Origin: Eledone cirrhosa
Lineage: Eukaryota
Reading direction: 5' to 3'
DNA: 64,000 nucleotides
Assembly: GCA_964016885.1 (NCBI GenBank)
Contig: OZ024742.1
Span: forward strand, 124,001-188,000
Positions 3,001 through 33,217 of the stretch are shown here, one piece after another. Made by a program: the position numbers and the translations under genes. Under the pieces are notes generated by a model that saw nothing but the letters and a program-made list of their open reading frames with translations, did not search any database and was not told the DNA's origin. Each line of letters begins with the position of its first letter. Within the stretch, counting starts at the first letter, position 1.

Positions 3001-6000
3001 ACCCTAACCCTCAACGTACATTCAACAGTAACCACCCTAACCCTAACCCTCAACGTACATTCAACAGTAACCACCCTAACCCTAACCCTAACCCTCAACG
3101 TACATTCAACAGTAACCACCCTAACCCTAACCCTAACCCTCAACGTACATTCAACTGTAACCATTCTAACCCTAACCCTCAACGTACATTCAACAGTAAC
3201 CACTCTAACCCTAACCCTAACCCTCAACGTACATTCAACAGTAACCACCCTAACCCTAACCCTCAACGTACATTCAACAGTAACCACCCTAACCCTAACC
3301 CTAACCCTCAACGTACATTCAACAGTAACCACTCTAACCCTAACCCTAACCCTCAACGTACATTCAACAGTAACCACCCTAACCCTAACCCTTAACGTAC
3401 ATTCAACAGTAACCACCCTAACCCTAACCCTAACCCTCAACGTACATTCAACAGTAACCACTCTAACCCTAACCCTAACCCTCAACGTACATTTAACAGT
3501 AACCACCCTAACCCTAACCCTCAACGTACATTCAACAGTAACCACCCTAACCCTAACCCTAACCCTCAACGTACATTCAACAGTAACCACCCTAACCCTA
3601 TCCCTAACCCTCAACGTACATTCAACAGTAACCACCCTAACCCTAACCCTCAACGTACATTCAACAGTAACCACCCTAACCCTAACCCTAACCCTCAACG
3701 TACACTCAACAGTAACCACCCTAACCCTAACCCTCAACGTACATTCAACAGTAACCACCCTAACCCTAACCCTCAACGTACATTCAACAGTAACAACCCT
3801 AACCCTAACCCTAACCGTCAACGTACATTCAACAGTAACCACCCTAACCCTAACCCTAACTCTAACCCTAACCACCCTAACCCTAACCCTCAACGTACAT
3901 TCAACAGTAACCACCCTAACCCTAACCCTAACCCTCAACGTACATTCAACAGTAACCACCCTAACCCTAACCCTAACCCTCAACGTACATTCAACAGTAA
4001 CCACGCTAATCCTAACCCTAACCCTCAACGTACATTCAACAGTAACCACCCTAACCCTAACCCTAACCCTCAACGTACATTCAACAGTAACCACCCTAAC
4101 CCTAACCCTCAACGTACATTCAACAGTAACCACCCTAACCCTAACCCTAACCCTCAACGTACATTCAACAGTAACCACTCTAACCCTAACCCTAACCCTC
4201 AACGTACATTCAACAGTAACCACCCTAACCCTAACCCTAACCCTCAACGTACATTCAACAGTAACCACTCTAACCCTAACCCTAACCCTCAACGTACATT
4301 CAACAGTAACCACCCTAACCCTAACCCTCAACGTACATTCAACAGTAACCACCCTAACCCTAACCCTAACCCTCAACGTACATTCAACAGTAACCACCCT
4401 AACCCGAACCCTAACCCTCAACGTACATTCAACTGTAACCATTCTAACCCTAACCCTCAACGTACATTCAACAGTAACCACTCTAACCCTAACCCTAACC
4501 CTCAACGTACATTCAACAGTAACCACCCTAACCCTAACCCTCAACGTACATTCAACAGTAACCACCCTAACCCTAACCCTAACCCTCAACGTACATTCAA
4601 CAGTAACCACTCTAACCCTAACCCTAACCCTCAACGTACATTCAACAGTAACCACCCTAACCCTAACCCTCAACGTACATTCAACAGTAACCACCCTAAC
4701 CCTAACCCTAACCCTCAACGTACATTCAACAGTAACCACTCTAACCCTAACCCTAACCCTCAACGTACATTCAACAGTAACCACCCTAACCCTAACCCTC
4801 AACGTACATTCAACAGTAACCACCCTAACCATAACCCTAACCCTCAACGTACATTCAACAGTAACCACCCAAACCCTAACCCTAACCCTCAACGTACATT
4901 CAACAGTAACCACCCTAACCCTAACCCTCAAAGTACATTCAACAGTAACCACCCTAACCCTAACCCTAACCCTCAACGTACATTCAACAGTAACCACCCT
5001 AACCCTAACCCTCAACGTACATTCAACAGTAACCACCCAAACCCTAACCCTAACCCTCAACGTACATTCAACAGTAACCACCCTAACCCTAACCCTAACC
5101 CTCAACGTACATTCAACAGTAACCACCCTAACCCTAACCCTAACCCTCAACGTACATTCAACAGTAACCACTCTAACCCTAACCCTAACCCTCAACGTAC
5201 ATTCAACAGTAACCACCCTAACCCTAACCCTCAACGTACATTCAACAGTAACCACCCTAACCCTAACCCTAACCCTCAACGTACATTCAACAGTAACCAC
5301 CCTAACCCTAACCCTAACCCTCAACGTACATTCAACAGTAACCACTCTAACCCTAACCCTAACCCTCAACGTACATTCAACAGTAACCACCCTAACCCTA
5401 ACCCTCAACGTACATTCAACAGTAACCACTCTAACCCTAACCCTAACCCTCAACGTACATTCAACAGTAACCACCCTAACCCTAACCCTAACCCTCAACG
5501 TACATTCAACAGTAACCACTCTAACCCTAACCCTAACCCTCAACGTACATTCAACAGTAACCACCCTAACCCTAACCCTCAACGTACATTCAACAGTAAC
5601 CACCCTAACCCTAACCCTAACCCTCAACGTACATCCAACAGTAACCACCATAACCCTAACCCTAACCCTCAACGTACATTCAACTGTAACCATTCTAACC
5701 CTAACCCTCAACGTACATTCAACAGTAACCACTCTAACCCTAACCCTAACCCTCAACGTACATTCAACAGTAACCACCCTAACCCTAACCCTCAACGTAC
5801 ATTCAACAGTAACCACCCTAACCCTAACCCTAACCCTCAACGTACATTCAACAGTAACCACTCTAACCCTAACCCTCAACGTACATTCAACAGTAACCAC
5901 CCTAACCCTAACCCTCAACGTACATTCAACAGTAACCACCCTAACCCTAACCCTAACCCTCAACGTACATTCAACAGTAACCACTCTAACCCTAACCCTA

Positions 6001-21419: not shown

Positions 21420-22279
21420 TGGTCAGTCATCACCATTAATCTCTCTATTCTCTATTACATGCAGCAGGGTCTCAGTGTTGTGACCTGATGTTGTTGGACC
21501 AGGATTTTCTTTCTCTACCTCTTCTTTGCCCTCTCCCCGAGAGTTTCCATCTTTTCACCATCTCAAGGATGGTGGTTCCTGTCTGCCAACATATTTGTTG
21601 CCTGACAAAGCTTTGTTTTGTGTTCCATGTATGAGATGTCTAGTAACCATCTGAATCACCTGTGCTCGAATTTCAGGAATCTTCATTCCATGACAGCTGT
21701 GAGGGTCCAATTCTCACACTCATACAAAAGGATTAAAGTCAACAAGGACTTCTATAATTTGTGATTTGCTGGAGACTGATCGAGTTGCTCTTCCATATGA
21801 CATTCAGCTATAACATGGTAGAAGTGGACAGGGTGAGTTTTGTCAGTAACTCCTTTTGAGATTCACCATCTTAGATCAGAGTGGATCCTAGGTACTTGGA
21901 GGTGTCCACTTCTTCAAGTCTTCCTTGGTTCAGCATGGTGTTGGTTGCTGTATTCTGGTTATTACTATTAACCCAAATCTTGCTCTTTTCTGAGCTGATC
22001 TCCATTCCATATGCTCCTGATACATTTATCAGTCTGGTAATGATCTCCTGGAGTTCTGCTTCACTGCTTCCTAACGGTTCAATATCATCAGCAAATCGTA
22101 GGTTGGAAATGGGCCATCTTTCAATGGAAACAGGGGTGGGGGAATCTTGAAGAGTCTCTTACATGATGGTTTCCAGAAAAATGTTGAAAAGGACTGGAGA
22201 AAGAAGACACCCTTGTTGAACTCCCCCAATGTTGTTATTCAGGAGAACTGCACTGTTTCAGTTGTCATTCATTGTTTTA
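21420..22279 (-). mobile_element. Decayed RTE-like non-LTR retrotransposon, 3' part (RT domain C-terminal half)
   Basis: Minus-strand motifs SAVLLNN (~22225-22245), GVQQGCLLSPVLFNIF (~22177-22225), ISNLRFADDI (22081-22110), KYLGS (~21884-21898), LLYECENWTL (~21701-21730), with stops and frameshifts. The 3' boundary is approximate. Confidence 0.88.
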
Positions 22280-22385
22280 CTAGCAGAGGTACCCGGCGTT
22301 TCCCGGTATAACTCTCAATGGAGTAGTCGTTCAAATGAACCGAAAGACTTCCGTTAAACACGATTATAGAAGTAATAATTTATAG

Positions 22386-22590
22386 GTGTTGGCCCTAAAG
22401 ATGGCCTTTGAACGTTCACTTTGAAATATCTCTGCCACGGTGCTGCCAGCAAAGACGAATCCGATGGTAACAATTTAAACTTGGTGGCCCTAAAGAGGGC
22501 CTTGGATCGTTCACTGTTAAAAGTCTCAGCGGCACAGCTGTCAGCAAAGACGACTCCGATTAGAGGTAGTGGCCCTTAAGAAGTCCTTCA
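22386..22590 (-). promoter_or_regulatory. Three tandem histone-3'-end-like stem-loops in the Helitron 3' non-coding region (within ~85-95-bp repeat units)
   Basis: Minus strand CCAA-GGCCCT-CTTT-AGGGCC-ACCA (stem-loop 22486-22501, perfect); CAAA-GGCCAT-CTTT-AGGGCC-AACA (22391-22406); GGACTT-CTTA-AGGGCC-ACTA (22571-22586, degenerate). Confidence 0.6.
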
Positions 22591-22959
22591 CACCACTTTG
22601 GTGTGTCGTATTTGCTTTGCTTGTTATTTGAGATTGTAACCTAGAAAAGCATGTAACAGTCGGTGGCCACAACAACGCCTTGGCAAAATCACGCTGGAAT
22701 GTAAAAAAAATGTGTAAATAAGATGTAGGGAAAAGTAGATTAATTAGGTTAACACTACTGAACATCGATAGCAAAGCGTAATAGCAACATATAAATGCGG
22801 AAAACGGAGACATTGAACATTTATAACGTAGAGCAAAAGTAACCCCAGAGGCGTACGTGGTATTGTCAAAAGGACAAAAATAGCACACGGATACAGCAAA
22901 TGTAAGCACTTATACAAAAAAAAACAAAAAAAACAGCGATTACTTGTTGGCGGATGGGG

Positions 22960-25900
22960 TACCTTCAAAACTTCCTTATAGACTATATGTTGGGTTTTCT
23001 CGCGAGCTGCAAAGGCAAATAGGTTATGTCGGCTCCCCACTCGAGAGCAGCCAACATATGGTTGACCATTGGAGGAGCACGGTTCTTCTAAATTAAGCCC
23101 TACGACTGTCAGCATCTGACCCTATGATTTGTTAATCGACATGGCAAAACTGAGTCGGAGAGGGAATTGCAGCCTTCTGAATGTGAAAGGAATGTCTTTT
23201 CCGGATGGAATGAGAGGTATCCTTGGTATTAAGACAGTATCCCCCTTACCACATCCTGTAAGTATTGTTGCTTCAATAACATGAGGCATCGCCTTTTGGA
23301 TGACCAGACGCGTGCCGTTGGAAAGCCTTCGGAGTTCCAAATTCCTGAGGAGCATGACAGGGGCACCTTTCTTAAGTCACAGTAAGTGTGGTGGCAATCC
23401 GGGAGGGTCTAGGGAGTTAAGAAATTATGTGGGGTAATTAACAACTTCGTCCGGATCAGCCATAGAGTCAAGGGACTTGTAGACGTGCAGATTTCGAGGC
23501 AAGCACAGCATGAGCTGTTCATGGTGTTTCCAACTATGTTGTTTTTCGAAGCCAATATTGCGCGTTCACACAACCACTCTTGATTTGTGTAGTTCTCCTC
23601 AAGATTAGGAAAAACAGACGTCCGTAACTCAGCAATTGACTTAACTCATCTGCAAATCCCTGTGAGGTCCGCTGCACCATCTCCGTCGAGTGGGACTTTG
23701 CCATCTCCTAACAACAAAATGGCAGCAGCAAAACCCGCTGATGTCTCATCACCTTGCAGTTGTGCTCTCATGTTTGTTGTAAGCGTCAGCTTTCTTACAT
23801 AGCGCCAAAGTGGCGAGGCCTTAAGGCATGCACCAACCTCATCAGCCCGTGTACCTTTTGGGATTACAGGCAGAGTCTGTCAGAAGTCCCCAGATAACAA
23901 GAAAGTGACACCTCCCGTTGGTTCTTGACAGTCCCTGATGTCTCTGAGTGACCGGTCTAATGCATCGAAAGCCGCCCCGTGGGCCATTGTGCATTCGTCC
24001 CAAACAATTAGTAGGCAGCGCTTTAACACCAGTGCTTTTCCGGAAGACTTGCTGATGTTGCACGTGGGTGTCTCAGATGATGCCACGTTGAGAGGAAGAC
24101 TGAAGGCAGAATGGGCCGTCCTACCGCCAGGCAGCAAAGTTAAGGAATGCCGGAAGAAGCCACGGCCAATGCGATGTTTCCGTGTTGCCTCACTGCAGCG
24201 AGTAAAAGTTTGATTACAAATGTTTTTCCCGTGCCTCCAGGTGCGTCGAGGAAGAATATACCCCCCTCTCCGATTACGGATGGAATCAACGACAATGTTG
24301 TAGGCTTGTTTTTGATCCATTAGAAGTTTTGGTTCATTCTCTTCAACATACCTTTTGAATTCGTCGACATCCTATGACGTTTCACGTATAATGTCGTTGG
24401 GAATGTCAGATGGCGCATCTCGAAGTGTTTGCGGAAGCCCATATTTCTCCAAGACATCTCCGCCCATTGAAGCCACTCTGTCTTCAATATCGATCAGAGC
24501 TCTGTTATATATAGCGTCTGAAAAGCCGACATCTAAGTTTTGAGATTGCAATTGAACGAGACGCCTATATTCGTCTGCGAAATCATGTTTAAACTTTTGC
24601 CATAAAGAGTAAGCATCAATTCACAGACGTGAAAGAGGATAGCAAAAAGTGCTCTTAGACTACGGGATGATTGTGAGATGGCAGCTTTCGTCAAGGTTGC
24701 ATCCCATTGTGCGTCATCTTCTAAAAGTCCACGCCTCAAGCAGGCTTCCCTGTACGTTCCACAGGCATATCCATCGACGGTTCTCAGATGAGTGAAGCTG
24801 GTCGGCCCTCTTACCTCATGAAGCAGATGTCGCAGGTAGAAGCATTCGTATTGGGTAGGGTGGACCGTATAAACTCGCCCAAGGCAATTGTCGAATTTGA
24901 TGCCTGGATGTCCAACCACCTCTTGCCCTACCTTCCTTCGTAGCCATTTTGTCCGGTTCTATGTATAGTAAGACGGTATTTCAGAATACAGCAGAGTTCG
25001 AGCGAAGTCGTCGTGTTGACAAAGTTTGAAAAAAGCGGTGAGTGTAGTTTCCTTTGGTGAGATCGCTAGCTGAGCAGCTGTTGCATCGTTGAAATACACC
25101 CGTTGACCGTTTTCAAGGTGAACGACAAGTTGTTTAATGACGGGGTGTCGTTGGTGCAGTGGGAAGCTAAAAACGCGCCAAAAGGCTTCATTGTTGCTAA
25201 TGTATCGAACTGCTTGATAGTCAGATACCTCGTCTCTACTGTTTTCATGACGAAGACCAAAGACGGCAGCATCCGATCCCTTGTTTAAGTACTTACAAAC
25301 GTATTTAATTGATTTTACTGAGTTGCAAAATTCGACGTTTATATGGGCGTTGAACGCTTTCAAAAGGGGGGGGGGCAATATGGCACTATCCATCTGTTGT
25401 CGATTTCGCGTTCACCAACTTTTGCTGTGAACCCACCGTCTTCAGGTCTCCTGCGCCTATACAACGGATATCCGTCACCGCCAGTCTGTGTTTCCTGTAA
25501 AAACGGCGGGCCGTTTTTACAGGAAACAGTTTCCGTCGTGTATGCACGGGGACTTCATATTGAGTCCATGTCCGCAAGGACCATGGACCATGTTTGATGT
25601 GGCTATAGAGAAGAGGTCCTTGTCAATCGACGGATCAGGTAGTTCGGCAGAAGTGAATTTGTCGATGTAGTTTGAACTGATTTTTGTAACCAACCAAATC
25701 AAGATATGGGCATGCGGTAGCCCTCGTTTCTGCCATTCAACCGTGTACATGTCGCACCTGACAGGCCCAAAAACCTGTCCTTTCTTTAATAAATCCATTA
25801 ATTTGGATAATTTCAGGCGAAACACTCTTGCTATGAGAGCGTGCCTGTGTCTTGGCGCTTGACCGTGGAACAGTTCGTTTGTAATCTCCTTCCACTTGGG

Positions 25901-27669
25901 ATTGCATGTAAACGTCATGAAAAGGTCGGGGCGCCTATAATGGCGTACGTAAGTCATGCCGTCCTGAGTCCTCTCGAGCGTGTATCGGGGTCCCCCTGTG
26001 AACGTTGAAGGCAAAATACACACTTGCCCTAAATTGTCTGAGGATACGTCGTTATTAATTCCATCACGTAGATGAATGTAGCATTCAGATCGAAGTTTCT
26101 TTTGATTTAATTTAATGAACCATAATCTCTCGGACTCCATTTTAACGGCCATATCAACAGCAAATTGTTGGAAAAGGTCACGAGAACCATGTAGATGGTT
26201 GAATGAATTTTCCCTTACAATAAATCGGAAAGCGTAGAAATCCATGCAGGTCACAGTTTTACTAAGATGTGCCTCACCATTGCCTGTCGAATGTTGAGGA
26301 ATGCCGAAATGGTATCCATCCTCGCCATTGACAAATAGCAATGGATACTGGAGTGCATCGTATGACCTGTGTGTCTCATTGATACGCTGTAATATGCTGT
26401 CTCGCTGCTTTAGAATGATATCTCTCTTGTGCTGTTCACCACAAATAACCGCAGCAATCGCATTACATGTTGGTGCGTTGAACCGACCAGCGTGTTCTCC
26501 AGATGGTCTTCTGTCAGCATGTATGACCACACTAAAGTTTTGGTCGGTGGCTGTTTCGCAAAGCGTACTTGAAACTGCGAACGTAGCTGTTTTTTGTCAT
26601 GAAGCATTTCTTGAAGTTTTATTATGTTTCCAATGTTAGTTTCGGACGAAATAGAGTTTCGCATCTCTGCCTGCTCCTGGTGGTTTCCAACGAAGTATAA
26701 CTGAAGAAATTGAGGATCCTTTTCTGCCAGAGACTGAATAGACCCAATCAAGTGGTAGATCTGCCCTGGACCTTGAAAGTTGGCATGAACCCACGTTCCG
26801 AGGCAAGCTTTGCTCCGAAGGATGTCATCTGAAACGTGGAATTATAGCGGCGGATATTACGCAGAAACTTCGATGATTCCTCCGTCGTGTCTGTCAAAAG
26901 GAGTTGCAATATCTCTGGTGGGTCGTGAATATGAGGTAGCCTAAATTTACCGTTTGAACAGCACATTCCATCTCTCTCCCCTGGCCACTTTTTCGTACGA
27001 CAAAACTGGCAAGTAGAAGTCATTTCCCAAATTTTAATATCTGCATGGACGGCGTAGTCGGAAAAGGGGTCGTAGTTAAAGGCCTTCAACAACCATCGTG
27101 AATTGCAAGTCCTAGAAATGCCACGTAACGATGATCGCCGCTGTTCCCTTTGCAGAAGTCGGCCACGTCGTTGCTCTATTTCGTGCAGCAGCAGTGGCAG
27201 AGGCGTCCCTGCTTCGTCGAACAGCGCGTCGTCCTGCATCCTCTTGAGTGCGAGCAGCGGCTGTTGCAGTGGCGTCCCTGCTTCGTCGAACAGCGCGTCG
27301 TCCTTCATCCTCTTGAGTGCGAGCAGCGGCTGTTGCAGTGGCGTCCCTGCTTCGTCGAACGGCATGTCGTCTTTCATCCTCTCGAACGCGAGCAGCGAAT
27401 GTTGCAGCGGCATCCCTGCTTCGTCGAACGGCACGTCGTCCGTCAGCTTCTCGAGTGCGAGCAGCAGCAGTCGCGGCACCATTTTTGTTCCATCGAAGTT
27501 CACGCCGACTGTCATCTTCCTCCGTTCTTGCAGCTGACGTTTGCACAGCATTCTGTGAGAGCCTGATCGCAGTTGCATTTACATCTTCGGTGAGACACCT
27601 TCGCTTAGACCTACTTGCATCATTAGATAATCGACTAATGAAAGTTCTTTTCTTGAGGGGGGGGGGCAT
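22960..27669 (-). pseudogene. Helitron Rep/Helicase (RepHel) transposase, broken by frameshifts and stops
   Basis: Colinear ORF fragments: N-terminal charged repeats; Zn-finger-like CQFC..KWPGE..GMCCSNGK; HUH Rep motifs PDLFMTFTCNP, VEWQKRGLPHAH, KYVCKYLNKG; PIF1-family helicase motifs LDAPGGTGKT (~24220-24250), IVWDECTM, GDF, QFPLRLSFAMSINKS*GQ, GQPYVGCSRV. Confidence 0.93.
27180..27480 (-). repeat. 69-bp coding tandem repeat (~4 copies, 23 aa RRAVRRSRDATATAAARTQEDEG) in the RepHel N-terminus
   Basis: GC(G/A)TCCCTGCTTCGTCGAAC recurs at 27203, 27272, 27341, 27410. Confidence 0.92.
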
Positions 27670-28619
27670 TGTTTTTAGAAAATTAACCAGGGAAAACGAT
27701 AAATAGTGGACAAATAACGTTTAAGTAAACAAATCTAAACACGGATATAAATTGTGAAAAAATGTGATAAATCTATGTGGTCTGAGAAAGCGGGTATGTT
27801 TTGCAAGATTTTGTGTGCCAATCAAATTTCAGGTTTTAAGTTAGGGGCAACGCAGCGTACGGACTACCTGTGGTAAAGGAAATTAAATAGTGTGGCTACA
27901 GTGGTAGGTATATAAGTGTCAGTATGTTTATTCAGTTCGAACATAGCAATAAGTAAGTACTAACCATTGAAAGGATACAGACAAAAATGGCCGAAATATC
28001 ACAGCATGATAAACTGGAACCTTATGACCATAAACACATTAACTAAACCTCCTTTAAGGTGACAAATGTTGAAGAAGCATGCGTTTCAGAAATATGGGGT
28101 AGCTTATGTGAGTACGCAAGTACAAAAACGTACCACTTGTCAAAAGCCAAAAAAGAAGTGTGATCCTAGGTCGGACTTGACCGATATAAATAGGAGTGAT
28201 TTCGCTCAATGAACAACACTCAAGTTGTCTGATTGGTTAGATAATACAAATAAGTGTGATGAAATCTACTGAACACAACTCACTGATGTGTGGTTGGCCA
28301 GAGGTCGTCTTTTCGCACTTAATTGAGGTGCAATTAAACAGGAGACACAACCGGGTGCAAAAACTAATCAATCATTCGCACAGTTTAGGCATGAGTGTGA
28401 AATAGCACAATCCACATACAGTAGGCGTTAAAATTTACACCTGGGTTAAATCGCGCTTTCTTGGTTAGGAGTGTGAAATGACGCCAAAGTTGAAGGAAAA
28501 AAATGCGACTCCCCATTCCGTACTTAATTTAATTGTGGTGCAATTACACGGGGGAGACAACAGGGTGCAAAATTAAATTCAATTATCCTAAAGTTAAGTC
28601 AACAAACTAAAGTTAAGTC

Positions 28620-29770
28620 AGGGGGATTTAAAAATTCGCTACTCCATTTGTAGGACATGAGTAACCAATGCGTCAACTTTCGTTTATATTGACTTTTATT
28701 TCCAGAAGTTGAAATGCTTTGCTGCGACCATAATATGAACTTTAAAAGGCTCACTGCCCTCCCTAGGGGGTTACCTCGCAAAATTCAAGTGATAACGAAT
28801 GTGCGGTGCTTTATCTTATGGCAGGCAATAAACATTTCGTTTAGTTTTTGTAAGAATCAAGTATAAACTTCCGAGGTCATGGTGCTTTTTTATTGTGGAA
28901 GTTTGAAATTTTATAGGTTAATGAATTGGGCTCATTGTCCCCGAGGGGGTCCTCTTGCTGAATTGAAATGAAAGTAAATATGCCTCACTGTATCTTCATG
29001 TACATGAATAACAACTAAGTCGAAATTCATTTTTTTAGACTACCAATTATAATTATCGAAGTTATGACGCTTTGCTGCATTACAATAGCCAAATTCAATA
29101 AATGACTCTCCGGGGCTTACTGCCCCATGGGGGTCCCCTTGCTTGTTCCGGGTATAGACAGTGTCTTCAACATCATCTTTAGGCAATCGGTAACCAATGT
29201 GTCCGGTAAAGTTAAAATCGAACGTAAACTTCAAAAGTTATCAGGTACTAATACAGTGTTAATGTGAACTTCAATATATAAGTCGAAGGGGCTTACTACC
29301 CACCACCCACCCCCCGGGTCCCCTTGCTAAGTTCAAATAAAAGTTCATGTGTTCATCTTCCTTTATAAGCCATGGGTAACCAATACGTCTCGCTAATGAA
29401 AACCAAACACCAACTTAAGCAGTTATAACGTTTTGTTGCATTGATGATATCAACTTCAACAATCATCAAGTCGGTTTACTGCACCCCCAAGGGATCCCCT
29501 ACCTCAATTTTTGCGCGAGTGCATGCCTGCAAATTTATTTGTAGGCCATAAGCAAACAAAAGATTAATTTTGGTGAAGATGAGAGGCAAACTGCAGGAAT
29601 TATGGGCCTTTATGCAGTAGTACTGCTGACTCCAAGCGAGAGGCTTAAGGGGGTTATCTGCCCCTGGGGGGGGGGGGGGCACAATCGATGTACGGAAAAT
29701 TAAAATAGCCTACAACGCGTAATTGGGCTTCAGAAACTTATGTATGAAATTTGGTGCAAATCGGTTGTAA
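28620..29770. repeat. Highly diverged ~180-bp tandem repeat (~6 units) in the Helitron 5' non-coding region
   Basis: An (T)ACTGCCCC..GGGGGTCCCCTTGCT-like motif occurs at ~28752, 28935, 29118, 29293, 29477, 29655. A GTAACCAAT-like motif recurs at ~28661, 29190, 29375. Confidence 0.7.
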
Positions 29771-29856
29771 CATGTAGAAATGCATGCGGTTACATGTAGA
29801 AATGCATGCGGTTATACAAACAGACAGACAGACATCTTCTGTTTTATATATATAGA

Positions 29857-30351
29857 CTAGCAGAAAGCCACCCGGTGGGCGGTTTTCTGCTAGCTAATCT
29901 AGTGTATATACTGATATTGTTGAGATTTGGATGAGAAATGTTTTCGGCACCACATGTTCACCGTCTCTCGGTGTGTCTTTTATGCATGTATAAATATATA
30001 TGTTATCTATACGGTGAAATCTTTGAAATAAATATATGTTAAAACGAAAAAGGAGAAAAGGAGATTAGTGACGGAAATATAAACGTTATGATACATAAAC
30101 GTTATGATATAACGATCGAAATATATAAACGTTTACGATAAAACGATGTAAATAGAAACGTTTATATATAATAAGCCGAAACACTCGTAAGCCAAAACAC
30201 TCGTAAGTCGAAACGTATAAATAAAGATTAATGTAATGAATTTGAAAAGCATAGAGATTTGAAACCGCATCTATTTGTTTCCTTGGCATTTTTTACAGAC
30301 GGACAGACAGACAAACAAACAGAGAAATGCCCATTATATATTATAAGTAGA
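29857..30351 (-). mobile_element. Non-autonomous Helitron module joined head-to-tail to the autonomous element
   Basis: The minus-strand 5' end is TCTACTTATAATATATAATGGGCATTTCTCTGTTTG at 30351. The 3' end is a hairpin plus CTGCTAG at 29857, directly abutting the TC of the larger element. Confidence 0.75.
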
Positions 30352-31570: not shown

Positions 31571-33217
31571 TTCGTTAAATGATCTTGCTGTCAAAGTCGT
31601 AGTCATTCATTACCATCCACAATCATCCCTCATACCAAACACAGGCAAAGGCTATGATAACGTCAAAGATGAAGTTATGATAGAGGAGGTCAAATTAGTG
31701 TTGCATGTATTACATCAATCTGATGTTAAATATTTGCTCTGTTGTACTTCTTTTGGGCCTTAATCCAGCCTGTTGGGCCTTAATCCAGCCCCTGTTGGGC
31801 CTTAATCTAGCCTGTTGGGCCTTAATCTAGCCCCTGTTCTTCTGCCAGGATTTCTTCTGTCCCTTCAGTCTGTTCCGAAGAACTCTTAGCAGTACTTTGC
31901 AAGGGTGGTTAATTAGGTTGATTGTTCTGTTGTTCTGGCAGTGATTGGGTCCACTCCTTTGGGTCCACTCCTTTGTTTTCCATATCTTCTGACAAGTTTG
32001 GCCCTGCATATTTTAGGAGCTCTGATGGAATATTATCAACTGCAGGGGATTTACCATCTTTAAGCACTAGCTCTTCTTCAACTTCCTCCTGGAGAATTGG
32101 ACTATCATCAATTTCATGGTTCTTATTGGTGGAATTCTCCAAGATGTTGATGTCATGTCTGTGTTTGTGGTTATAATGGTCTTCGCAATACTCAGACCAT
32201 TTTTTGATGAGGTGGGCCTCGTCCATGATGTGAAAACCAGTTTTCTTTTTCTTCAATGGTAGTGTGTGTGTGGGGGGGGGGGTTCTTTTCGTTAGCATTT
32301 TGAGGGTTTCATAAGCATCCTTACAGTTGCCCTTTTGGTCTGATATCCACTTCACTTTGGCTTCCCTCAATTTCTTTCTGACTTTCCTATTCACAGCGTT
32401 GTATTGTTGACTTGCCTCCTCTTCTGTTCGCTTAGTCTTTCTCAGGTCAAGTCATGTCTTAAATCACATAGGTCCAAGATGTCATCAGGGACTCATGGTT
32501 TATTTTTCCTTCTCTTTCTCCCCAGCACTTCTAAGCTGTTTCATGAAGTGCTTTATTGATATTATCTGTTAAGGATTAATATCTTTTTCTGGAAGGTTGA
32601 GGGTTGAAAACCTGCCACCTACGTTTGCCTCAAACATTGCTGTAACACTAGCATCTCTTAGTTTATCTACATCAAACCTGATATGTGTGGTTTCCTTTTT
32701 ATGGATCTTTTTCAATAAAAGCTATTGTGTCATCAGAACCACACCATGATCACTGCTGACATATGCACCAGGGAAGGTCCTAGTCCTGGCCTTATTGGCA
32801 CTGGACTTGAAGTTTTGAGGTGCGAGGATGAAGTCAATTTGGTTATGAGTCTTTACATTGGGTCCATGCCATGTTGTTCTCTGTGGGGTCTTGTGTGTGA
32901 TCAGTGTGTTGGCTAGGGCCAGCTTGTGGGTGTTGTGTGTGATCAGTGTGTTGGCTAGGGCCAGCTTGTGAGTACTAGCAAATTCTAGGAGGCTGAGTCC
33001 ACAGTAATTTGTTTCTCCAACTCCAAATCGTCCAACTGTCCCAGCCTAATGGCCATATGCACCCGAGCCTACCTTGTTATTCCAGTCTCCTGATTATGAT
33101 GTCTTTTTTAGGAGCTCTCCTCACCATTTTCTCCAGATCTTCACAGAACTCCTCAACAGCATCATCATAATTACGTGTTGGTACACAGACTTGTATGATG
33201 GTAATATTGTGTGGTCT
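31571..33217 (-). mobile_element. Decayed RTE-like LINE, 5' part (AP endonuclease C-terminal half, linker, RT N-terminus)
   Basis: Minus-strand motifs RPHNITIIQV (~33188-33217), GDWNNKVG (~33068-33091), HNQIDFIL (~32823-32847), GAYVSSDH (~32745-32768), KSPAVDNIPSELLK, RTINLINHPCKVLLRVL, QAGLRP, STTEQIFNI. Confidence 0.88.
31754..31838. repeat. 21-23-bp tandem repeat (TGGGCCTTAATC(C/T)AGCCTGT x4) inside the LINE
   Basis: Read directly. It duplicates the QAG(F/L)RP-coding segment. Confidence 0.9.

Follow-up and report, generated by a model that had tools for sequence, protein, structure and literature searches.

A conserved histone-type hairpin module behind the RepHel gene in several Helitron lineages of Eledone cirrhosa, tentatively read as an SLBP-binding mimic

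Histone mRNAs are described as the sole cellular messages that end in this type of hairpin and as the sole targets of SLBP, and SLBP in human cells was found to bind histone mRNA only (PMC4604434). For the human protein, the loop bases U1 and U3 were given as binding determinants, with reduced binding for U1C and nearly abolished binding for U3C (PMC4604434). SLBP-linked storage in oocytes was reported for several animals (PMC12803260). The Helitron Helraiser transposes via double-stranded circles and needs DNA synthesis (PMC5876387). No published Helitron with a histone stem-loop or a link to SLBP was found in the literature searched, which was mostly open access, and repeat-database consensus files could contain such sequences; in PMC13282606 the words histone and stem-loop do not occur. 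Here, we describe a module in Helitron 3' regions which is undescribed in the literature searched and which is real, conserved and more widespread than first seen, while its function is one that we infer from sequence.

The window, i.e., the whole stretch of 64,000 nucleotides that was analysed, holds a decayed Helitron copy on the minus strand, located between a 45-bp telomere-type satellite and a 37-bp satellite. Its features are as follows.

22280..29856, minus strand: decayed Helitron copy, TC...CTAG, limits taken from the alignments of other copies
22966..27101, minus strand: RepHel gene with stops and frameshifts, found by tblastn with a full-length homologue and by Pfam
22963..22965, minus strand: site of the family RepHel stop codon, after ...VYKEVL; AAG in the window copy, TAG in the family majority
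22665..22679, minus strand: unit 0 hairpin, decayed, one base missing; family form GGCCGT TTTT GTGGCC, 30 bits with model R1
22571..22586, minus strand: unit 1 hairpin GGACTT CTTA AGGGCC, one mismatch, boxes decayed
22508..22515, minus strand: unit 2 upstream box AGTGAACG, GAACG invariant in five lineages
22486..22501, minus strand: unit 2 hairpin GGCCCT CTTT AGGGCC, perfect, flanks CCAA and ACCA
22467..22475, minus strand: unit 2 downstream box AATTGTTAC, ATTGTT invariant in five lineages, 10-12 nt past the stem
22413..22420, minus strand: unit 3 upstream box AGTGAACG
22391..22406, minus strand: unit 3 hairpin GGCCAT CTTT AGGGCC, one mismatch; family majority GGCCCT, perfect
22372..22380, minus strand: unit 3 downstream box, AATTATTAC in the window copy, AATTGTTAC in the family
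22280..22306, minus strand: right end of ordinary Helitron type, with a GC-rich terminal hairpin (22306-22292) and CTAG (22283-22280)

The element shows the canonical Helitron features, namely a RepHel with Rep and Pif1 domains, a 3' hairpin, CTRR and a target T, the latter at 22279 directly after CTAG. Using Pfam, the window frames matched Rep (PF14214) and the Pif1 helicase (PF05970), and PF21530 was matched in a family copy. The N-terminal repeat region of RepHel probably extends to about 27670; a 69-bp tandem repeat with 4 copies (window 27185-27465) lies in the N-terminal coding region. A search of the 3.0-Gb genome with the 3' region yielded 249 candidates, of which 40 were scored, with 92-96% identity when the window itself was excluded; the copy alignment of the window Helitron family consists of the best 30 of these 40. 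The window Helitron is about 92-96% identical to other copies, whose alignments cease at 22279 or a few bases from it. In three runs, contigs from one sample, loose ends at 22278/22279 match the Helitron 3' terminus, and reads show an inserted G at 22676 within unit 0 and another base at 22965 in the mutated stop codon site; these reads confirm the family end and the majority bases only. The 5' end is approximate, as three copies align to 29854-29862 and one to 29893; the 5' TC lies at about 29856-29855 and is preceded by a CTAG-ending palindrome, not by a plain A. This short CTAG-to-CTAG palindrome (window 29893-29857) was also seen directly before the 5' TC of a family-4 copy (L311, about 3455-3495).

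The 45-bp satellite (window 1-21054, about 489 copies, with embedded CCCTAA runs) lies 124 kb from the contig start and is probably subtelomeric, and the 37-bp satellite occupies 33216-64000 with about 833 copies and 94% matches. Decayed LINE-like reverse-transcriptase pieces were recognized by eye on the minus strand at 21560-22278 and at about 31700-33200; their shared orientation on the two flanks suggests that a LINE surrounds the Helitron together with the neighbouring sequences. Elsewhere in the genome, four tandem copies of a truncated piece from the window Helitron family lie 4.4 kb apart at C1:163.63-163.64 Mb (L109-L112).

The first-pass annotation had proposed three sense-strand hairpins downstream of RepHel with CCAA-GGCCCT-CTTT-AGGGCC-ACCA as the best unit. 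All three are present: units 1, 2 and 3 begin 377, 462 and 557 nt past the family stop codon, their hairpins end 288-108 nt upstream of CTAG, and the best unit lies at 22501-22486. A fourth unit (22679-22665) had been missed; it lies 94 nt further upstream, and its family form is fully paired, including two G-T pairs. Arrays in the family mostly hold four units, five or six in a few (38 loci scanned). The mismatches that had been noted in two of the hairpins hold for the window copy, but the one in the last unit marks a subfamily, most family copies being perfect there. Across the family copies the unit 2 loop reads CTTC or CTTT, and at least one fully paired YTTN hairpin was found in the last two units of 26 of the 30 aligned copies (both units in 10/30, neither in 4/30). 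The exact 16-mer GGCCCTCTTYAGGGCC gave 226 genome matches versus 0 for the reversed control, with a chance expectation of about 1.4e-6 host-type hairpins per 690 nt. On the basis of these three results the hairpins are not a product of chance; they are real and wider than first reported. The Rfam check of the window, in turn, went against the histone assignment: with the gathering score of Histone3 (RF00032) at 34 bits, the best unit, unit 2, reached 26.2 bits (E 2.9e-4 for 5 kb) and unit 3 16.7 bits, while host genes reached up to 42 bits.

Hairpins alone, as they had been read earlier, turned out to be only one part of what is conserved. The conserved unit is a module of about 50 nt composed of a GAACG box, the hairpin and an ATTGTT box, and host histone genes lack the two boxes. 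As had been asked of a genuine signal, the hairpin is conserved family-wide and always located on the sense strand. This holds for five lineages, four with RepHel upstream (window family and families 3, 4/6 and 5) and one non-autonomous (family 2). Among 30 loci drawn from the 226 GGCCCTCTTYAGGGCC matches, 14 belonged to the window family, 15 to family 2 and 1 was unrelated. Family 2 is a non-autonomous Helitron with a single hairpin copy in the same orientation and a helicase in 0/15 loci. Family 3 was obtained by a helicase-domain search without the motif (90 of 150 matches fetched), and 2 of its 13 loci carry a perfect GGCCCT TTTC AGGGCC about 280-300 nt past the stop codon. Two looser patterns, with 388 and 382 matches versus 1 and 0 in the controls, led to families 4, 5 and 6, for which a helicase was found upstream in 3/17, 3/4 and 6/7 fetched loci, respectively. 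Their loops are TTTT, TTTA or TTTC. Families 4 and 6 form one lineage, in which coding-less family-4 derivatives keep the module; family 6 has lost the ACCA flank, its downstream box lying 3 nt from the stem, and a third unit kept its boxes with a decayed hairpin.

Helicase identity among the four coding lineages is 55-70% over 165 residues, and the 3' alignment between lineages is confined to the terminal hairpin and the module, the latter over 28-57 nt at 76-94% identity. Each lineage retained at least one perfect copy, with position and strand constant. Searching with the boxes only, 660 matches were obtained versus 214 for the control. The first 100 of these 660 comprised 72 that hold the hairpin, intact or decayed, 13 with the decayed extra family-6 unit and 15 unrelated sequences, and no family with a different hairpin between the boxes was found among them. 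A repeat with both boxes and another hairpin (3 loci, no helicase nearby) was dropped as unrelated.

With each lineage represented by a single unit, all 12 stem columns were invariant, compared to 4 of the 18 in the spacers (p 2e-5 by Fisher test, a value inflated because three of the five units, those of families 2, 4/6 and 5, were found by the motif). Also invariant in the five lineages are GAACG, ATTGTT and loop positions 2-3, which are always T; loop position 1 is C or T and position 4 is free. An invariant stem next to varying spacers points to selection. Covariation of the stem, a further check proposed for the hairpins, was not seen above shuffles, and rare differences per column among copies amounted to 0.88 in the stem versus 0.95 in other G/C columns. 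An outer helix joining the boxes was predicted in three units, in differing registers, and in none of the others, and was not accepted. Readings as a telomere repeat (TTAGGG) or a heat-shock element were dropped, being incompatible with most units and with loops of the TTTC/TTTA type.

The host set comprised 37 distinct histone 3' ends taken from 30 of 67 histone matches. A perfect hairpin was present in 32 of the 37, located 19-38 nt after the stop codon, compared to 230-600 nt past the coding end in the Helitrons. The suggested comparison with the host gave a divided result. The GGCCCT/AGGGCC stem was found in 27 of the 32 host hairpins, but a loop starting with C in 0/32; tabulated without presupposing TTT, the host loops were TTTT (14), TTTC (12) and TTTA (6). 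The window family thus combines the host stem with the loop of C. elegans (CTTT). The U3 requirement of the loop is satisfied in all lineages and that for U1 in families 3, 4/6 and 5, with C instead in the window family and family 2.

An SLBP gene was found in the host genome. For the host U7 snRNA, none of 65 scored candidates was above the cut-off, and the best match was not complementary to the host element. The host downstream element, AGT-N-Y-Y-Y-T, begins at +16/17 in most host ends (25 of 31). Scored for this element, the Helitron boxes gave -3.9 to 5.3 versus 3.3-10.1 (median 8.2) for the 31 host ends, and 5-90% of background windows scored as well as the Helitron boxes. These boxes begin at +12 to +14 (one at +19), 3-4 nt too close compared to the host. 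ATTGTT has a weak likeness only to ATTGTTT of three host H2A rows, and neither GAACG nor ATTGTT has a counterpart conserved in host histone 3' ends. Flanking histone sequence within the element was not detected (0 blastn hits at E 1e-3 versus 60 histone and Rfam-hit loci). A separate repeat of the genome, an imperfect palindrome of about 620 bp, carries two inverted copies of the host H4 3' end, which match the end of the H4 gene at 97% along some 44 nt and have the loop TTTA. It accounts for most of the 75 scored Rfam Histone3 matches, many of them at 40 bits or more, and was located on C18 (4.9-12.7 Mb), C28, C7 (18.1 Mb), C2, C19 and small contigs (e.g., L346:2972-3588).

The occurrence of the module was followed in a helicase-picked sample of 70 of the 150 loci (the 30 best and 40 for varied match length), which formed 13 clusters. 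The hairpin was present in the window family (1/1), family 5 (4/6) and family 4/6 (3/3) and in 0/7 loci of family 3; it was found in 0/53 loci of the nine other clusters, including the largest one (36 loci), which has AATAAA at the stop codon. A distant family (about 40% identity) had it in 0 of 30 pattern-scanned loci, and 6 of 46 further loci in its cluster were covered by model R1. For metagenome Helitrons the count was 0 of 74 loci reaching the helicase end (of 80; either strand, 52.7 kb), a set in which 51 loci extend 400 nt or more downstream and the terminus pattern was recognized in only 12. Applied to 88 loci (80 metagenome, 8 own-genome from other families), model R1 gave one match of 17.3 bits without a hairpin, and viral contigs yielded 0 helicase relatives and 0 motif matches. 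Other repeats were observed past the stop codon of such elements. The metagenome Helitron L136 has tandem hairpins at about 2100-2400 (GCCTT/9-10-nt loop/AAGGC), which are not histone-like, and the module-less loci L413 and L418 of the same helicase clade have other tandem repeats, those of L418 with GTGAACG on the opposite strand.

Within family 3, a block of about 300 nt that holds the module was absent from 16 of 22 loci, present in 4 and cut off in 2. The short form makes up a separate branch with shorter tips and, in 20 loci picked by helicase, occurs 16 times compared to 2 for the long form; the module-less subfamily appears to be the younger and commoner one. In a helicase tree of 38 rows, the window family and families 3 and 4/6 fall into an own-genome clade (99/97), which also holds four lineages whose single sampled copies are module-less, and family 5 falls outside. 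At least 2 changes of gain or loss of the module are forced on the tree, with 4 on the best tree, and a single origin was not rejected (p-AU 0.07, 38-row tree). AATAAA precedes the hairpin in 0/5 module-bearing family representatives and occurs in the first 400 nt of 4/13 module-less own-genome representatives and of 28/53 metagenome loci (other strand 16/53), figures that lean towards the proposed end without poly(A) but whose comparison is confounded by base composition.

Taking these data together, we tentatively favour the module as an SLBP-binding mimic on RepHel RNA, a reading which we place somewhat short of an even chance and ahead of a DNA-level signal or a neutral capture. The module would be transcribed as part of the RepHel message and its hairpin bound by SLBP, perhaps more weakly in the window family with its C-initial loop, which the tandem copies could offset. 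RepHel output would then be raised when the replication machinery required by the Helitron circles is active, and such S-phase timing would pay, since Helraiser uses double-stranded circles and DNA synthesis. The module may have originated when a histone 3' end was captured long ago; inheritance, duplication, loss and, probably, exchange between lineages would have followed. The module would be an accessory, not a requirement, and the hairpin may act within a longer message. An RNA element binding SLBP appears to be the best fit to the invariant host-type stem, the one-sided U-rich loop, the fixed place past the stop codon and the dispensability in cis. Loss of the module in a subfamily that still multiplied would fit a message-level function supplied in trans. 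Also in favour are the stem shared with 27/32 host hairpins, a loop that obeys the SLBP pattern, the host SLBP gene, the host-type TTTC hairpin in the motif-free family 3, and the reappearance of families 5 and 4/6 in the helicase-picked sample.

The same reading has to face the Rfam scores below the cut-off, a loop C that is absent from the host and weakens binding by human SLBP, the exclusive binding of histone mRNA by SLBP in human cells, the lack of a host-type downstream element, the missing ACCA flank of family 6, the larger distance from the stop codon and the missing covariation. SLBP leaves the equally conserved non-histone boxes unexplained, the module is missing in 9/13 clusters, 74/74 metagenome loci and 16/22 family-3 loci, and family 2 keeps it without a RepHel to regulate. 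The histone-pathway idea of the first-pass annotation is retained in part, i.e., for the host stem, the family-wide occurrence on the sense strand in five lineages and the SLBP gene, and given up for a U7-cut end without poly(A). Cleavage of a RepHel mRNA at the hairpin in this way was not supported, considering the weak and too close downstream box, the U7 search, the distance of 230-600 nt, the Rfam result and the missing covariation. The fuller picture, in which a Helitron group would have hijacked the histone mRNA pathway, with SLBP-bound stem-loops (possibly non-polyadenylated ends), an S-phase or oocyte-stored transposase and a module of enough use to have been passed between unrelated lineages in this host, is possible but doubtful.

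A role at the DNA level, or as a site for a factor other than SLBP, with the histone likeness being one of origin, is kept open by the two boxes that SLBP does not explain. Here, a hairpin on the displaced plus strand could help to prime minus-strand synthesis, a mechanism left undecided in the Discussion of PMC5876387, or GAACG, the GGCCCT-N4-AGGGCC palindrome and ATTGTT could form a composite site. This would agree with boxes that all lineages share unchanged and that host histone ends lack, with extra units such as the third of family 6 in which the boxes outlived the hairpin, with the failed downstream-element test and with the module in the non-autonomous family 2 and the coding-less family-4 copies (helicase in 0/15 and 3/17 loci). 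A DNA palindrome, however, would not require the asymmetric YTTN loop, whose positions 2-3 read T without exception on the sense strand. Moreover, the 16 to 2 majority of the module-less family-3 form (20 helicase-picked loci) indicates that the module is not needed in cis. We regard such a role as rather unlikely.

A neutral relic, i.e., a captured histone 3' end spread by 3'-end chimerism and tandem duplication, is in our estimation unlikely as well. Helentrons did capture histone fragments (Culex H4 and H15-family; PMC4067079), and an evident capture of an H4 3' end exists in a separate repeat of this genome. A relic would also suit the patchy occurrence on the helicase tree, which needs at least 2 changes (4 in the best tree), the decay of extra units and the loss in one subfamily. 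The 76-94% module identity is compatible with a moderately recent swap, and stem decay is not lower than elsewhere (0.88 vs 0.95 per column), although this is expected of dead copies under any reading. Against neutrality, the changes between lineages fall in the spacers and spare stem and boxes, no flanking histone sequence could be aligned (0 blastn hits, 60 loci), and position and strand are constant with at least one perfect copy per lineage. A mere coincidental resemblance between the histone stem-loop and a subterminal tandem hairpin of the ordinary kind would go along with a short motif below the Rfam cut-off and with the separate tandem hairpins found in this region of the unrelated L136, but is very improbable at about 1.4e-6 expected per 3' region and with a perfect host-type copy in the motif-free family 3.

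If the SLBP-mimic reading is true, a DNA transposon would be the first non-histone client of the SLBP pathway, and a simple way to time a replication-dependent transposon to S phase or the germ line would be at hand. The idea lends itself to direct tests, given five natural variants, loops that start with C or T, and a sister subfamily lacking the module. Even without SLBP, Helitron 3' regions would hold here a conserved cis-element that is undescribed in the literature searched.

Comparing the module with known systems, the canonical Helitron Helraiser is alike in Rep and Pif1, a probable 5' TC, the terminal hairpin, CTAG followed by T and dispersed copies (PMC5876387). A histone-type module between the stop codon and the terminal hairpin is not part of the canonical Helitron, nor of the 74 related metagenome loci. 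Helentron-Cq-32A of Culex quinquefasciatus is likewise a rolling-circle element with histone-derived sequence. According to PMC4067079, its histone pieces are disrupted coding fragments, present in 8 copies from a single family, in contrast to the 3'-end hairpin only, in several lineages and with no coding remnant, described here. The histone hairpin of C. elegans shares the loop CTTT with the window family; CTTT is standard there, whereas 0/32 histone hairpins of this host are C-initial, and the AATCC and AATAAA elements of C. elegans are missing behind the Helitron hairpins (PMC1924863). From the metazoan histone mRNA 3' end (RF00032), a system of SLBP, 3'hExo, U7 snRNP and the histone downstream element, the Helitron hairpins differ by their location past a transposase, 230-600 nt off, in tandem and with extra boxes, by a C-initial loop in 2/5 lineages, by the mismatch of the downstream box and by scores below the Rfam cut-off. 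They are nevertheless alike in the 6-bp stem, which is identical to that of the host, the 4-nt loop with T at positions 2-3, the A/C-rich 5' flank, the ACC-type 3' flank and the place on the sense strand past the stop codon.
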